A DNA stretch of 63,982 nt, filler included, from Ionaspis alba (taxonomy: Eukaryota), in the NCBI GenBank assembly GCA_964255285.1. It is 6 parts of 6 records of this genome, joined end to end, with 100 filler letters (N's around TTAATTAATTAA, not from the genome) between each part and the next. Parts side by side here need not be neighbours in the genome. Positions count along the whole stretch, not along the records: positions 1 to 10,767 come from CAXUUL010000587.1; 5 more parts are not named here. One strand, 5' to 3'. The first letter of the stretch is position 1. Each line of letters starts with the position of its first letter. Shown piece after piece: positions 358 to 10,129 of this stretch. The translations under genes and the position numbers were made by a program. The notes beneath the pieces are model-generated. The model made no database searches, had not been told where the DNA came from, and saw only the letters and a program-made list of their open reading frames with translations.

Positions 358-2011
358 TCAGAACCCTAACTCGCCCAACCTAGGTGCTCCTCCTTCCCAG
401 TCCCACCGCTCATAGTACCTGAATACCAAATCGTAGCCTTCGAGATCGTGCACGATACGATCGACACGCCGATAACCCTTGATGCACTCCATTCGCGCAT
501 TTTTCTTAGCCGCAGCCTTCCTTTCCAAGAGCTTCATGTCCGCCAATGCATCTGTGTCATTCTCGTTATCGGCGTCAGTCGGCTTGGCCTCGAACAGGGT
601 GACGGAGAATCTTCCAGGCTTGAAGATATTGACCACCTGTTCCACGACTTCTGCGGTTTCTCGACCGGTCTGCGAACTTGGAACGTTGGTTTCGAAGGAT
701 GCGTAGCTGCAGTGGGGCTCTGGTGTGACGTGGACGGTGAAATAGTGGGTAGCCTTTGGGCCTTTGGGTGAAGGAATGACACCGTTGGCTGAGAAGCCAC
801 ATGGGGTGAAAAGGTAGGCGTCGATCCGAGCATCGGGGTACTTGCTGGCAGAGTATACGTCTGCAAGACCCGAACATTCGGAGACAACGGTGCCAAGAGC
901 ATGGCCCTCGGTAGTAAGTTCTTCAGGAAGGACATCTGCGTTGTCTGAAATGGACAACTCGTCTTCGTCCGACGAAGTATTGCCGAAGATGTCGATGGCG
1001 TCTTGGTTGCCATAGGAGCAGTGGCTAGCAGTCAAATCCTCGAAGTTCGACTCGCTAATTGTGCTCAAATGCTCCTCTGCATCCTTGCGCGCCCGACGAG
1101 CACGCTGAAAGTATCGACCCTCCGCGACCGCACTCGCGTTGTCGAGGTAGAATTGTTTGGCATTTTCCTCCTCCAGATCGGTCATCAAGATCTCTAGTGT
1201 TTCGTCCTCATCGTCCATTCCTGCTGCCGATGTCATGGTGTCTACCGCAGATTCGGGCAGACTTAGGACTCTTGTCTCTGTCTCGCTTCTCTCGGGTGTT
1301 GCAGGTGGCGTCAAAATGGTGTTGGGCTCTGTCAGGTAGAGATACCAATGCTCGCCGTTCATCTTGCCAATCATGTAGGCGCTACCGCCCAAGAACAGCT
1401 TGTCGAGTGATTTGACCTCATCTCTCCAGCTACGGTGAGGACCACGCTGACGGTCTGGAAAGAGGAAGTTCTTGCGGCTGTAGAAGACGCGATATGGAGT
1501 TGCAGCAGTGGGAATGCTGGTAACAGAATCACCTCCCGCATGAGGGAAGCCAGCTGCCAGAGCAGCAATCTCAAGGATTCTCGGTAAACCATACAGAAGC
1601 GTGGTCGTACCACATGTTTTGAGTATGAGTTTGTGTGGGAACACAAACATGCTCGACTCAGACAAGAGATAGGCATCAACGTGTTCGGACTCCACAATGG
1701 ATAAAACCTTGCAGTTGACAAGATCTAGCATCTCTTTCCATTGCTCGGATGGCACGGATTTGAGCCCATTTGGAGCAGTCCGAGCTGGAAGAGAGGCTGC
1801 CGAAGCACTGAACCATACCTCTAGAAGTTTTTCTGGTCCTAAAGATCCGTGAGAAAATTTCTACCGTTACGAATTATTGGAAACACCAACCTTCGAAGGC
1901 ATTGCTCGAATCAAGGTCCTGAGCGACATCACGATTGATGGTCAAGTGGGGTGTTCCACTAAACGAAGATGGTGATGCTGTATAATTCTTAGGTATCTCA
2001 ATATTGACCAT
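358..2011 (-). CDS. SPE2: S-adenosylmethionine decarboxylase proenzyme (exons 2011-1891, 1838-358)
   Basis: The spliced N-terminus reads MVNIEIP...NAFEG|PEKLLEVWF. Motifs: self-cleavage site YLLSESSMFV, LILKTCGTT, FTPCGFSANG, HVTPEPHCSYASFETN. Intron 1890-1839 is GTTGGT...TAG. Confidence 0.97.
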
Positions 2012-2166
2012 CTCCAAACAGGCTGTTCGTCCAAAGCCCACTCTTTCCAATCCTGTATTCAGGTGTTACAAGATACAATAACTCTTTGGAGCAGATATTC
2101 GATCGAGTAATGGAGCCCAATCTACAACCCAGACCAACAATGCGGTGTTCGTGTGGGATGCAAGGG

Positions 2167-2208
2167 CCCACAAATTGTGGGGGTAGCTGGAGGCTGGCTT
2201 ATGCCAGC
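2167..2208 (-). promoter_or_regulatory. Tandem hairpins in the SPE2 5' UTR (candidate SDC-type cis-regulatory RNA motif)
   Basis: On the mRNA strand, GCTGGC-ATAA-GCCAGC is followed 11 nt later by CCCAC-AATTT-GTGGG. Confidence 0.55.
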
Positions 2209-2434
2209 AGCAAGCGGTCTTCAGCGAGCTTGACTTTGGCAAACGTTAGGGAGGTCGGGCGGAGAGGAGAACGAAAAAGATCTTTTGCCAGGGAATGTTG
2301 CCTGATTTCTTTGCTACCTCGTGCTGAAGAGACCGATACTCTGTCAAAGTACCGGGTCTAGCAGACGAGGTTATCTGCTTGGATAGAAAGGTTTTTTGAT
2401 TTTGAATAGGTGTCGAAGATATTCGTGGCTAGTG

Positions 2435-2608
2435 TTATCTGGGCCTGGTGGTTGAGAGGCATATGTCAGTAAGGTTTCTTACAAATGCGCCAAGGTGTTT
2501 CAGCCCAGATCTTGACAACTTTGATCTGAACTGAAGCTCAAACTCAGAGAGACCAGATACGTACTTAGCAGGCTTTGATAAGAAGCGTAGCAAGTCCTTG
2601 CGGCTCAT
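2435..2608 (-). promoter_or_regulatory. Spliced uORF (MSRKDLLRFLSKPAKPR*) in the SPE2 5' leader
   Basis: ATG at 2608. Predicted intron 2564-2445 has donor GTACGT, branch site ACTGAC and acceptor CAG. Stop TAA at 2437-2435. It is the only exonic AUG I found between 2012 and ~2915. Confidence 0.65.
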
Positions 2609-4899
2609 GGGGTGCGGAGAGGAAGGAGATGGTTAATCCAGAGTGGCTTTGGAAAGCCTATCTGGTCGATGAGCCAAATTCGGAACTCTGTTCTGTGGTC
2701 GAAGAAGAGAATAGATTGCTTCTTTGAGCTGCTTGACGCGAAGATCGAGAGGAAATGGGAGAAAAGAATATCGAGAGATCGGACGAATGTGTGAGATTGA
2801 GGGATTTTCTTGAGCTTTCGCTTCTTCACCGATGCAGCCGATTAGGCTTACAATTGCCTTACGAGTAGACGAGATCTGAGTAGGCACGATAGATATTGCC
2901 TAGATAGTGCAGTGAAGCATATGCAGGATCGAGTCTGTGAATACGCAGAAATAGTGGTGGGGCAGGAGGCGCACGAGGTGATTTGCCATCTTGTGGGGGG
3001 GCGCCAAACTTTTTTGTTTTAGCCGCGGCTCTGACGCAGATCTCGAAGCCGTTAGGGCTGGGGCCGTTGTTGTGTTACAGATGACCTCCATCATCTCCCG
3101 ATAACTTTTAAAAGTGTTTACTATGGCTTAGTGGCACGGGATGACTATGGTGGAAAGCTGTAAGAAGCAAGCATATTATGTCTGCCTCTAAAACAGTCTG
3201 GTATACTACTTTACAAAGCACAACTTTGGTCTTCCTGCTGCAGCATGCTCACGAGGTCCGAGTCACCACTCGCTTTGAAGTTATTTATAGTTGAGATTCG
3301 TGTATCCATGAACGGGTGCTCGAGAGTGTGGGCAGAGTCTCTAGACCGCATTGACAGCGCTTCTTGCGGAGCTTTCGACCAACAATAATATATCTTGGAA
3401 ACCACGCCCAAACCTCCTCAGCCTTCATGCATCAGTAACTCCTTATTAGTCTCTGGGTTCAGACCGTGGGTTTCAGGACAGGTCCGACTCACATTTTGCA
3501 ACGAGGACAACTAAAGATGAACGTATTGTTGACTGGACCAGAGAATTAAAACCTCTATAGCGATGGACGCTTGAGCAGTGATCAAATCATAGAATCATGA
3601 TGACTGGAGAAACAGTAGTAAAATGTAGGATAGGGATCAGAAGACAGCCTTTATCATACGTGAACATCATTTCGTGCTTCGACAACCTGGTTCACATGGA
3701 GATTTAGCATGTGCGATGAGAAGTACGAAGTACATCAGAAGTACGGTGGCCAAGAGCGAGACTTGAGGCAGTTGCAAGCATTCTAGTGATATCCAGTGTA
3801 GCATCCTTGAGCCAATCAATCAAGAGCGAGCATGTGTAGGAATCCCATGGTCCGAAAAAGCCTGTTGTTTTTGTGGCAAAATCTGCAGCCGGCTATTTCG
3901 CCACACCCTCACTTTGCCAATCATGATATGCAGAGACAACTCATCGTCCATGATAGGCTGTATGCAGGCTTTGCGACCATGTTCCGCCCGAGTAAAGTCC
4001 CAGCTGATAGATTGCAGCGCACTTCTTCCGCCAACAAGGAATAAAGGTATGATAGACATGGGAATATGCAACTGCATAGCTTGCACGTAGATAGTTGCAC
4101 CTGGGCGCATATATCACGATAATGATTCTTCAGGCGTGGACTGCTACGACAGTTCCTAGGGTATACATTACACTGATTAAGGGGTCTGAGAGACGAAATC
4201 TCCAATAACATGGGTGTTGTGGCGGACCTCGTACAGTCCTACTGGCTAGACTTGTCACAAGCGTGGCTGTAGGACGGATGGTATTGCTGTCGCGGAAGGC
4301 GGGACGGGGGCGGGCACTGTCAGGGATACTGGGGAGGGGGTGTGAGCGACCAGGACTCAAGTAGTGTACATAGTAAGAGCAGCTGCACATAATATGAAAC
4401 GCACGGCGTGATTGGTGACTCACAGACAAGGAGGGGTCGTCTGGAGGTTGTTCGTTGGCCGAAGGGGCGCACTCATTAGCTGACCTGGACTGCATCTCTA
4501 GCATGCCCGTACTTAGCTATCCACTCTAGCACATCATAGGTGGGAGAGGGCCGCCCCAAGTACAAAGAACGTTGCGTGACCAGCGCAATCAATCAATCAA
4601 TCAATCCATTCGATATTTTCTTCCTACAATCGCTTCACCGACTCAAATTCTATCGCAGTCTCGCTGACGCCCTCGTGGGGCAGTTTGATTCTGGAATGTC
4701 TCGGTCTCTGTCGCTGCCATGCAGATAGCAATCCGAGCCCCATCTATTACTGCCAATCTCGTGGATGTCGCTTCCTCTCCCCATCGTCTGACTCCTCGAT
4801 TATCCCCACGGAAAGTTGTCGCAAGTGATGTGATGTCGGTGGAACGGCAGCATCACACTTCTACAGCATCGATACGAAAGAAGCCGTGGTAATTTGGAC

Positions 4900-7800
4900 A
4901 TGGTGGAGCCAAGCTACACTCTCCATGGACACACGAGGAGCATGTCCTGTATGTGACTTGGTTCATTGGGTGTATCAATTCTATGCTGTAGAGGCAAAAG
5001 AGCTTTGGGATGCCGTGGACGATTATTTGAGAGTCATGTGCTGACCTGAAAAGCTCTTGCATCCACCATAGTGCCGTTCTACTTCGAGTCCCAGGAAACA
5101 AACCCAACACTAACACGTGCATCTATTGAGGTCATGCCGCCGGATATCCCAGATGAGTTAAGAATACCACTCCCTCCTTCGGCTGCCTCCTCGGATCATG
5201 GCGAGGACGATAACCCCGTCGAACCAACAGACAATCCATCAGGTTGGAGAAACAACAGTGACGTTGAACATGGCGGAAAGTGGTTCCCAGGAATGGATTT
5301 GATCCAGGACACAGCCAGTGACAAGGATACGAAAATGGACACACATTCCTCTGGCCACACTTTGGCAGGGATAGGACCTGACGTTACTGACGACAATTCA
5401 AATCCGGAGCCAGTATCTCTTGGAGAGCTCACTGCCACGCTCCGTAGGGAGGAATTCGAGACAAGCCGCTTCCAAATGCTGGAGTTCCGTGTCAAGTCAC
5501 TTCTTCGTCAATCTGGTGTATATCGCCGGCTTCTTCCTTTACACTCTCATTTGTATCGTCTCATGGTTGATCGTTTCCTGCATGGCAACACCTCTGCTTT
5601 TGCATCCATGTATTCGCAAATGATCGGGTTGCAGGAGACGATTAATACTGCCAGATATGACAAGCCTGCATGGGATTATTCACTCAGCAAACATCTGTCT
5701 AAACCGGCCTCGTCGGAGACCATCAACTCATGGACCCAAACCTTGTCACCAGAATCTCTGGAAAGCCTTATTCGCTTGATACGCCACATCAGAACAGAGC
5801 CAGGATTTCTTGCTGAGCGCATAGGTAAACTCTCCTCATCTCAACTGTACGACCTAGCACAGCCNNNNNNNNNNNNNNNNNNNNNNNNNNNNNNNNNNNN
5901 NNNNNNNNNNNNNNNNNNNNNNNNNNNNNNNNNNNNNNNNNNNNNNNNNNNNNNNNNNNNNNNNTTGCTGAGCGCATAGGTAAACTCTCCTCATCTCAAC
6001 TGTACGACCTAGCACAGCCTTACAGGACCCCATATTCCACAGGTTCCATTATGTCGGCCACCACCTTGTACTCTAAATTCGATCTAAGGAGCCAGTGGAA
6101 CGGGAAACCCAAGAGCAAGGATAGCATCGACGTATTGACAACCATGCAGCATGATCCATTGTCCGTCTTGCTTCATGGTACTTTCGCTACATCCTCTGGT
6201 CCAGGATCGCAGGAGAGCCAACGACAACTTGACATATGGGCTACCGTTTGCGCGCAAGTTATCGCGTGTGGGAAGACAGGATCTGACGAATTTTGCACTG
6301 CCATTCTGAACTCCTTTGCCGCTTTGGAACCATGGACTCTTGAGCCACAGCTCGAACTACTTCTTCTGGATTCCTTACGTTCAGGGGCTTTCATACTTGA
6401 AGGGCCACAGCACCAGCCAGTAAACTTTACCCAACCAGCAGAACTGCACAATGCAAAGATCGCCGTAGCGACCTCTGAATTCTTCGCCAAGAACGTGGAA
6501 AGGATCCTCGAACTTATCACCCAAGGACCTCCTTACCTTGGTGTACCACAGCACTGCTTGAGTCTGATTCGAGCCATTCTAGGTAAGATTGCAGATCCAG
6601 GAAAGCGTGCCAAGGCCAAGAACTTCTTCGTGTCTCGTTGGTATTGCACAATCTTTCTTTCCGATGCTATCACTTATCCAGAAGTAAGCGCAATATCCGG
6701 TCCACGTGGGGACTTTGACTGACTCTCGAGGCAGACCCATGGCATGATGATGGATTGTTACATCAGTGATAGTGCTAGAAAGTCCGTACTTCAAGAACTT
6801 TCGAACCGCTTACAAAAACATTTCTTTGACTCCTTATCGCCATGGTAAGCTTGCTCCATGACCGTCGCAATTCAAAGAAGCAATCATGGGCTGATGATGG
6901 TAGGAAACAACCCGCGCCGGTTTCCGCTTCAGTCAAGTCAAGGATCCAGAAACTCTTGGATATGTTTGATCCTCTGGAGCCTGATACTCGTCAAGCCAGT
7001 TCCACCACTCTGGATCAAACAGGGAAAAACTTCTTGATGTTGAGCCCACAAGATGTTTTAGCGATTGCTAAGGCCTTATACCCTGATCACGCTCTAGAGG
7101 ACACCGTGGAATTTGCAGAGACCTCAATCCCATCCACTGCATCCTCTGTAACAGGCTCATCTACCATGACATCTGGGACCGATGAGGGCCGGACAAACAC
7201 ATCTTCCTCCTTGGCTGTCAGTATCAGCGGCACCTCCATGACTAGTGAAACCCTTTCCTGCAACTTGACGACCGGGACTGCAGAGAATTCTGGAATTGGT
7301 GCTCGGATCGTTGTAGACGACACTGCGAGTCTTCTACAGCGAGCGGAAAGGACGCAGACCAACTGTATTCCAGCGCCGACAAAAGTCTTGATCCACGAGC
7401 TGACCAAATTGGTTGACCGAGATACTCCGGATCCAAATTCGCTCGTCAATCGGGATGAGCCAGGTTTCTTCTACATTTATGAGAATGGTAATGGCCTTTC
7501 ACTAAGCCCGCTTTCTCCAAAAATCGATGTCCGGAACTCCGACACCTTAGGTGAAGACAATACAGATGGCAATAATCTGTTCGCACTAAATCTGGACGAT
7601 TTATCTTCTCTGTCTGAGTGTCTCACCCTGATTGCTCGCGACCCTGGAATGGACTATAGGATCGTGGCAACTTCCACTAGGACTGGTTTAGAGGACTGTT
7701 TCTACACAAATATATGTGCAGCTGAAGCTCGGTATGATTTTCAATCTGCCCACTTTTGGTGGCGAGGATTACAAGCTGTGCGCCGCACTACATCTCAGAG

Positions 7801-10129
7801 CCTGGAGTCAGTTGTTCAAAGCATGGTGGAAGCTTCCAAGCGCAAAACCGAGACTGAGATCCGACTCAGCAACCTTTACGAATCATGGCTCTTTGCATTG
7901 GGAAGCCGCCAGGTTGTCCACGACCAAGAACTCGAACGTCAAATTACTCGTGGCAAAGCACTTAGGGACAAGATGTGGTTTGCGTCTGAAGTCAGACATT
8001 CTTCTACCTACGAAGATGCCCTCAACGTTATTCGTGCCTTGAAAGCTATGTCGAAAACGACACAGTCCAAAGCCACGGGTGTGACAGCTTGGGCTCGACA
8101 ACGCCTGAGGAATTCGCTTGGCTCCGACCGAGCCCAAGCCCAGACTCTTGAAGCACTAGCGGCGCACAAAGACCACGGCGGACCCGGAAAGTTGAGCGAT
8201 AAACAAGTTGAGCTAACGTCGAGATGGCTCACTCGCCAGAGTATTGAGAATTTCTGCACTGGCGAAGAACGAATCCATCGCTTTGCTTTGGAGGTACAGA
8301 AATGCACAAATCGATTGGTTGGTGAGACTCTGCTTGATAGTCCGGTCCTATGGTCTAGCAAGTTGTACCAGCAGGAGAAGCAGGGACTGGGTCGTGATAA
8401 CGGTTCGGCCGGCTTACAAGGCATCTACGATCAAGATTTCGGCAGGAGAGACCCAATGAATCGTCCTCCTGGTCTCCATGACTCCGGATTCATGAATGGT
8501 TCTGGTTCTGGACCACAGTGGGCTCACGCTGGATTTCCCCACTCTATGAACGAGCCCAGAGGGCCACCGTATCCACCCCGGAATGGGACGAGCTTACACA
8601 TTGACTCACCAAGAGATTTACTGGTTACAACGTGGGCATCGCAAGACATGGACATAGCTACCACTCTTCCTCGAGGTTGGCGCGCACCACCAAGCCCTAT
8701 CTCGCCTACCAGTCCAATGTCGACGCGACGACTAAGCAACTCTACATCGTCCGCAAAAGGTCGATTTCTTGAGCGACTCAAAAGGACTGTGCGGAGTCTT
8801 CTCTTGAGTGATCTAGGATTCACTTTGTGGAACGACGGTAGCGAGACAGATCGATGGGTTTCGAATGCTTTGTTGGAGGACCAAATGAATATCACAACTA
8901 GACCTCGATCGATTTCTGTTGCACTTCAAAACACGGTCCAAAATCTAGAATTGAACGAGCACGAGAACAAGTCCAGTCCTACACTTCGACCGATATTTGG
9001 ACCCGCAGATATACCAGAAGCTGGCAGAAGCCGGGAGGTCGATAGTGAAAGTCATCCGCCTGTACCAGACAATAATCCGGGTCTTCAAGAAAGCCAACCC
9101 TCCTTCCATTACATCGAGGGGTACAAGAAACTTCTTAGTAAATTCACTCTATCGTGCGATCCGCACTCGAAGTTGAAAGCTCTCTATGATCTTACCCGAC
9201 TTGCTGCTACCTCTCAGATGTCTGAACCAGAGGTTAGAGACCATCGGAATGGCTCACCTCCCGAGAATCGTCAACAAGGAGCTAGTCCCCAAAAAAATTC
9301 AGGAATTCGAGGCGTTGGAGTGCCAAGAACAAGGCTGACACGATTGGAGGAGGTCATGGCCAATTGTGAAGAACGACGGCTGGTTAGCGTCAAATCTCAT
9401 AGTCTCAGCGGAAACCTATTGTTCAACGCTTCGTCGAGTATCAATTCACCACCAGAGGCCGATGCTGAGTCCAACATGCCTTCCGTTCTTCAAGAAATTC
9501 TGCGTGATCCTGCTCTTTGCCCACAAACTTTGTTCCGAGACCTTCAATATATTGCAACCTTCGTCCCTTCCTCAATCTTGGATCACACGCCCGAAGGCAC
9601 CGCTTTCTGGACATTCAGTCTTGCTGCAGTCTCTTTGAAGTCCGACATCTGCAAATCGCTGACTCATCGAGCCAACGAAATCGTGGCATATCACTATGAG
9701 AAGCCCGCAACCAGGAACCAAATTGAGCCTACAGCCGAGCCCTCCAATACGCACACATCAGATACTCTCCAGAATTTGAAAATCGACCATAACTCAGCAC
9801 TCCAAACCACCACCCTCGACGACGCCGCCCGCCTCTACATCATCTCCGCTCTCGAAGGCGATCCCACCGCCGCCCGCGAGCTCGCTCTCTTCTACCTCAT
9901 GCCTCCTGAGGGCTTGCCCAGAGTTACGCTACCGCTGTCTAGAGCTGGAGATGTGTTCCGACCACAAATGGTGGGCCGAGGAGGTGTGGCTGAGAGGCAG
10001 CAGGGCAATGGGCTTGATCCGCATACTTTTGCTTTGGCCTTTCATTGGATGGAATTTGCGGCGAATGCGGGCGATGTGGATGCGAAGACTTTTTTGAAGA
10101 ATAATGGTGATTTGGGGAGGGGCTGGTGA
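4900..10129 (+). CDS. Large fungal protein with putative VPS9-like domain and C-terminal Sel1-like helices (possibly RasGAP-like N-terminal region)
   Basis: Three ORFs join through introns 4949-5071, 6684-6734 and 6845-6903 once the 55-nt duplication at the 100-N gap is removed. DPHSKLKALYDL and LFRDLQYIATFVP suggest VPS9-like; AFHWMEFAANAGDVDA suggests Sel1-like. Domain calls are by eye. Confidence 0.75.

Follow-up and report, generated by a model that had tools for sequence, protein, structure and literature searches.

A conserved, intron-split upstream reading frame in the AdoMetDC (SPE2) leader of Ionaspis alba, with a possible part in spermidine feedback

An intron-split reading frame ahead of SPE2

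Judged from its sequence, the short intron-split upstream open reading frame (uORF) ahead of SPE2, the AdoMetDC gene, of Ionaspis alba is real and strongly conserved. It is also an element already known and carries little weight as a discovery, since the family of uORFs, with this very peptide, was printed in 2010 and splicing of the leader in 2017. What is added here is that the intron occupies one conserved position and keeps the uORF out of six-frame scans, that the weak start context is conserved, that some lineages lost the uORF and that a predicted multi-hairpin spacer is larger than the single published motif.

The window (the whole stretch of DNA analysed, 63,982 nucleotides from assembly GCA_964255285.1, filler included) carries the uORF on the minus strand, in the part taken from CAXUUL010000587.1 (Table 1). 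After removal of a 120-nt intron the frame runs from AUG 2608 to a TAA ending at 2435 and specifies a 17-residue peptide in which proline is penultimate (Pro16-Arg17-stop). Both the intron and the spliced peptide had been proposed in an earlier, sequence-only reading of this DNA and were reproduced exactly, in coordinates and in sequence. The intron contains a branch-like ACTGAC at 2470-2465 and an AUG at 2462; the latter and 2608 were the only AUGs found within 900 nt upstream of the SPE2 start at 2011, the next one being at 2920. The description of 2608 as the single exonic AUG was therefore correct for those 900 nt, and it holds for the leader if transcription begins 3' of 2920. The accompanying remark that a six-frame ORF track cannot show the uORF was true of the spliced peptide but not of the unspliced frame, which is open (57 aa, same stop) and is listed in six frames. 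A second AG occurs six bases past the acceptor (2443-2439, minus strand), and its use would terminate the uORF at Lys15. Further upstream on the same strand lie a TATAAA (3289) and, from 3351 to 2920, eight AUGs; transcription from near 3289 would put more uORFs into the SPE2 leader.

Table 1. Features of the SPE2 locus in the window
Feature	Position	Strand	Description
SPE2/AdoMetDC coding exon 2	358..1838	-	ORF and Pfam match
SPE2 coding intron	1839..1890	-	52 nt; removal restores FEG-PEK junction, unbroken in intron-less relatives
SPE2/AdoMetDC coding exon 1	1891..2011	-	strong start context: G at -3, G at +4
Hairpin H4	2122..2163	-	predicted; 11-bp stem in most relatives, here mismatched at two positions and extended at the outer end; z -2.4
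Hairpin H3	2167..2181	-	predicted; small; 87% of cells paired (42-row alignment)
Hairpin H2	2193..2208	-	predicted; near-invariant 6-bp stem, variable loop
C-rich block	2245..2262	-	conserved; no consensus pairing found
H1 segment	2317..2379	-	conserved; hairpin H1 (2358-2331) and possible H-type pseudoknot; predicted
Possible pseudoknot stems	2379-2374 with 2365-2360; 2370-2366 with 2321-2317	-	predicted
uORF exon 2	2435..2444	-	10 nt; last base of Lys15, Pro16, Arg17, TAA
uORF intron	2445..2564	-	120 nt; phase 2, inside codon 15; GTACGT donor, CAG acceptor
uORF exon 1	2565..2608	-	44 nt; codons 1-14 and two bases of Lys15; C at -3 (weak AUG context)

The SPE2 product was 533 aa long, starting from the codon at 2011 and not from 1731, where a 457-aa ORF begins, and its second exon matched Pfam SAM_decarbox (PF01536) with an E value of 1.4e-103. 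On the plus strand, ORFs of 281, 223 and 1095 aa at 5134-10129, the first with a run of N within it, probably belong to one multi-exon divergent neighbour, three scanned pieces of which gave no Pfam match.

AdoMetDC uORFs of Pezizomycotina were reported by Ivanov, Atkins and Michael in 2010 (PMC2811004), and the spliced peptide of the window was identical to 5 of the 25 species rows in Supplementary Figure 1A of that report (two Coccidioides, Ajellomyces, Uncinocarpus and Trichophyton). The gene and the 17-codon length were likewise the same, the distance from uORF to main ORF was 405 and 441 nt in the published sequences and 423 nt, from stop to AUG, in the window, and the published account of these uORFs revealed no difference of substance. 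That account presents mRNA sequences and, where it describes these uORFs, mentions neither the intron position nor the weak start context. The sequence-only reading, in proposing a real uORF with a proline-containing end in the AdoMetDC leader, accordingly agreed with the published peptide and with the conservation described below, although it presented the uORF as if it had no prior description.

Conservation and splicing among relatives

Metagenome contigs were scanned for AdoMetDC relatives, of which 187 were found and the best 80 retained. Among these best 80 of 187, the uORF was present at 62 loci, in addition to that of the window itself. The 18 misses comprised 11 loci with too short an upstream region (one of which, L032, still shows uORF exon 2), one partial case (L058) and six loci without the uORF despite enough upstream sequence (L022, L024, L025, L075, L076 and L080). 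Because these six lack it and L058 has no in-frame AUG, the uORF is dispensable in some lineages. At L058, approximately 850 nt before the second coding exon, the frame is preserved over its 3' two-thirds together with the intron, a state that suggests decay, initiation at a non-AUG codon or a fault in the assembly.

Removal of duplicates from the best 80 of 187 relatives left 49 non-redundant leaders. The intron was placed after the second base of codon 15 in 46 of these, with lengths of 48-265 nt and a branch-like motif in 45 of the 46. An acceptor followed by Pro-Arg-stop was found in all 46 leaders that have a donor there, as opposed to 24 of 9200 shuffled sequences and, on the opposite strand, 1 of 519 windows, codons 16-18 being invariant by construction because the acceptor search pattern demanded them. 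Distances from the uORF stop to the main AUG ranged from 339 to 531 nt across the 49 leaders. Position -3 of the upstream AUG (uAUG) was a pyrimidine in 49/49 (U in 48, C in the window), and that of the main AUG was a purine in 49/49.

The leader alignment and peptide-level comparison that had been suggested with the sequence-only reading bore out conservation of the peptide. Thus, pN/pS for 44 distinct 17-codon sequences (L074 excluded) was 0.195 when codons 2-17 were taken and 0.073 when the comparison was confined to codons 5-17, these values being uncorrected pairwise proportions from related, non-independent sequences selected for likeness to the peptide of the window. Pairwise identity among the same sequences was 0.81, 0.90 and 0.50 at first, second and third codon positions, respectively, so that third positions varied most. 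Conservation of residues 5-13 extended well beyond the terminal proline; the Arg17 codon ended in A in 42 of the 44 sequences and Lys12 was AAG in all of them. That a chance ORF should have been joined by chance splice signals has virtually no probability and was ruled out by identity with the published peptide together with the conservation counts in the 49 leaders. On these sequence measures (published identity, conserved intron position and codon-type variation), the spliced uORF and its intron signals are beyond what chance would give.

Uninterrupted forms of the uORF were also encountered. On a 48-kb contig, the uORF at L074:2293-2349 is intron-less and 18 residues long, reflecting intron loss and one added residue. 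In the short contigs L030 and L069 the uORF is unbroken and the AdoMetDC coding-region intron is absent, which is consistent with spliced mRNA, and the uORF is likewise uninterrupted in published RNA sequences (PMC2811004). Contigs from run X1 contain the uORF intron and show no joints, and they have no bearing on expression. Two alleles were present in X1 over 2477-2609 at similar depth (88 and 73), and its source is for this reason either heterozygous or a mix of strains. The second allele has one synonymous change in exon 1 (2579, Leu10) and five substitutions plus a 7-nt insertion in the intron.

Retention of the intron had been put forward as a second layer of control, a suggestion that was not upheld by these sequences, in which the retained product was not conserved, the length and frame of the intron were free and one allele carried the 7-nt insertion. 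Thus, of the 46 leaders, 35 had a retained frame that closed directly behind Lys15, at a stop supplied by the common GTRAG donor, 3 (one of them the window) had one that ran on to the usual stop and 8 had one that ended elsewhere, while intron lengths modulo 3 were distributed 17/13/16 across the 46. As a functional product the 57-aa retained frame of the window was rejected, only residues 1-15 being common to relatives, and the insertion in the second X1 allele shifts this frame. In many species retention could ease repression by removing the Pro-Arg end, though not in the organism of the window, where the 57-aa product still ends in Pro-Arg. Regulated retention that turns the uORF on and off would draw on those 35 leaders, but it is very improbable in view of the donor origin of the Lys15 stop, the Pro-Arg end kept in the window, the unconstrained intron, the loss of the intron in L074 and the efficient splicing reported for the N. 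crassa precursor.

The N. crassa report is that of Li and Breaker (2017, PMC5640933), in which the SDC leader was fused to luciferase and leader splicing was shown by RT-PCR; the literature searched yielded this paper alone for the term SDC motif and for the N. crassa locus tag. Besides describing the precursor as efficiently spliced, it reports two splice forms with one shared acceptor and two 5' splice sites. Sp-I retains two uORFs and Sp-II lacks them but retains the 3' half of uORF 2, and use of the upstream 5' splice site excises the start of the uORF, giving one of the major forms. We infer that their uORF 2 is the uORF of the window. In each case there is a leader intron with one 3' splice site, a uORF that spans it and, as predicted for the window, a conserved hairpin in the leader whose stem has 11 bp; in contrast with the two uORFs and two 5' splice sites of N. 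crassa, the window has one uORF, with donor-like sites upstream of it at 2862 and 2851 as candidates for a second donor. Skipping of the uORF from either site in the manner of N. crassa is possible on this sequence. As a conserved feature, an upstream alternative donor was not indicated, donor-like hexamers occurring at scattered positions in 29/49 leaders compared with 36/49 control stretches taken after the stop.

Translational control and the polyamine question

By analogy with known systems, we consider it rather probable that the conserved AdoMetDC uORF of Pezizomycotina serves as a spermidine-feedback repressor of SPE2 through stalling at Pro-Arg-stop. On this proposal the uORF of the window would be a sequence-dependent, leaky translational repressor whose intron is normally spliced out. 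Part of the scanning ribosomes would pass the weak uAUG and start at the strong SPE2 AUG, 477 nt on in the spliced mRNA, while the remainder would translate the 17-mer. High spermidine would slow termination at Pro-Arg-stop, by analogy through competition of polyamines with eIF5A, and the paused ribosome would bar scanning and so lower AdoMetDC, with negative feedback on spermidine synthesis as the outcome. Leaky scanning and slow termination are proposed because the anatomy combines a weak uAUG with a penultimate proline. Directly observed in the sequences were the frame, the conservation of its intron, selection acting on the peptide and the contexts of the two start codons, weak for the uAUG and strong for the main AUG; from the analogies below we infer, for the organism of the window, translation of the uORF, repression, stalling and dependence on polyamines and eIF5A.

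Polyamine sensing by the uORF of the window may reasonably be supposed from two sets of relatives in function. The first consists of the Pro-Ser-stop uORFs of HOL1 and AZIN1, on which high polyamines inhibit eIF5A-dependent termination (secondary statement, PMC10855120; PMC8892498). As described there, these share the penultimate proline with the uORF of the window, and the start of the AZIN1 uORF is weak, as is the uAUG; the window differs in having an AUG start and Pro-Arg-stop where HOL1 and AZIN1 have Pro-Ser-stop with eIF5A-dependent termination. The uORF is to that extent outside the Pro-Ser-stop subgroup formed by the plant, HOL1 and AZIN1 uORFs. The second set consists of the AdoMetDC uORFs of mammals and plants, which, where tested, respond to polyamines (PMC2811004). 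According to the same source, such AdoMetDC uORFs arose separately at least three times, and a penultimate proline was noted in AdoMetDC uORFs other than those of vertebrates and sea squirts. Like mammalian MAGDIS and the plant uORFs, that of the window is a peptide-conserved uORF on an AdoMetDC mRNA, and the plant small uORF has a penultimate proline as well; it differs from them in its unrelated peptide, in the absence of a tiny uORF partner and in being apparently not cap-proximal.

Alternatively, the uORF could be a constant, sequence-dependent brake, with regulation exerted through its inclusion (by choice of 5' splice site or start site) or through downstream hairpins and not through polyamine action on a stalled ribosome. 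We regard this as unlikely, although it would fit the production by N. crassa of forms with uORFs (Sp-I) and without them (Sp-II), the raised output of SDC hairpin mutants (PMC5640933), the donor-like sites at 2862 and 2851 and the retention of hairpins in lineages that have no uORF. Against it, such upstream donor-like hexamers were scattered and not enriched, and the conserved weak start and penultimate proline match the polyamine-responsive pattern.

The nascent peptide might instead sense another signal (SAM, decarboxylated SAM or putrescine) or act mainly through nonsense-mediated decay, and this reading is decidedly improbable. Conservation of residues 5-13 past the terminal proline resembles that of arrest peptides that sense small molecules, the arg-2 uORF being an example, but the mammalian and plant AdoMetDC uORFs that have been tested respond to polyamines. 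Decay is conceivable because the uORF ends upstream of a coding-region intron (1890-1839), and exon-junction-dependent mRNA decay operates in filamentous fungi, yet relatives L064, L072 and L074 have no intron in the AdoMetDC coding region. For spermidine feedback, which remains the preferred reading, the literature searched, beyond the reach of which most subscription papers lay, contained no experiment on the polyamine response of this uORF. That search likewise gave no test of polyamine-dependent stalling on a Pro-Arg-stop uORF, which makes the uORF a good experimental target; Li and Breaker themselves name uORF-mediated control among the open questions (PMC5640933).

Predicted structure in the spacer ahead of SPE2

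Between positions 2444 and 2009, the 436 nt that follow the uORF intron folded better than shuffles (z -2.66, 1/100), showed distinct blocks of conservation and were predicted to contain four hairpins and a possible pseudoknot (Table 1). Patterns were counted in 55 leaders, namely the 49 above and six of those in which the uORF is missing or incomplete; the seventh such leader, L025, nearly duplicates L022 and was excluded. H1 was found in 40 of the 55, the C-rich block in 50 (compared with 10 of 440 control windows), H2 in 53 by a looser pattern, H4 in 38 and the first pseudoknot stem in 24; the strict pattern for H2 matched 44 of the 49 uORF-containing leaders. The pattern for the second pseudoknot stem matched 273 of 440 control windows and was rejected as insufficiently specific.

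Pairing was examined in two alignments, the structures having been derived from the same sequences as were scored; relatedness inflates such counts. In a 42-row alignment, largely selected for having H2, 91% of H4 cells were paired and 7 of its 11 pairs showed two-sided changes, and 98% of H2 cells were paired with a two-sided change at one pair only. In a 36-row alignment, selected for H1, the H1 stem was paired in 94% and the surrounding possible pseudoknot in 76-80%; two-sided changes in the latter may owe something to misaligned rows in which the element is absent, two cases being clean by eye (L011 and L014). An Rfam scan of window positions 1500-3500 gave no real match, the one hit being at chance level (E 3.7).

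The published SDC motif is a hairpin with an 11-bp stem that represses by itself, mutations in it raise reporter output, and it showed no spermidine or spermine binding by in-line probing (PMC5640933). One of H1-H4 is probably this motif. By its 11-bp stem with covariation H4 is a candidate, and H1 is similar in size. The published description is of one hairpin, as opposed to the four hairpins and possible pseudoknot predicted in the spacer of the window.

Elements of the spacer persisted where the uORF did not. Thus, among five uORF-less leaders (L022, L024, L075, L076 and L080), H1 and H2 were present in all and the C-rich block in four. Survival of H1, H2 and mostly of the C-rich block after uORF loss would be explained if the 423-nt spacer were one large structured regulatory RNA that senses a metabolite or binds a factor, with the peptide or instead of it. 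Such an RNA seems to us improbable; if real, it would be a leader RNA, distinct from the TPP riboswitch, through which filamentous fungi respond to a metabolite. A spermidine-binding RNA has been reported in the 5' UTR of S. pombe spe2 (Sun et al., 2020, PMC6961545). The two leaders are structured and belong to the same gene, but that of S. pombe is from a different lineage and was likened to the window from its description alone; earlier claims of polyamine riboswitches have been called unconvincing (PMC10853860).

Departures from the common arrangement of the spacer were of two kinds. The leaders of L022, L024 and L025 were much shorter and lacked H3 and H4. H1 was absent from L006, L007, L009, L015, L033, L036 and L050, and in the five leaders of this set that were folded it had apparently been deleted cleanly, the outer stem closing a short hairpin. 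This clean deletion with retention of the outer stem suggests that the leader RNA, as modelled, is modular.
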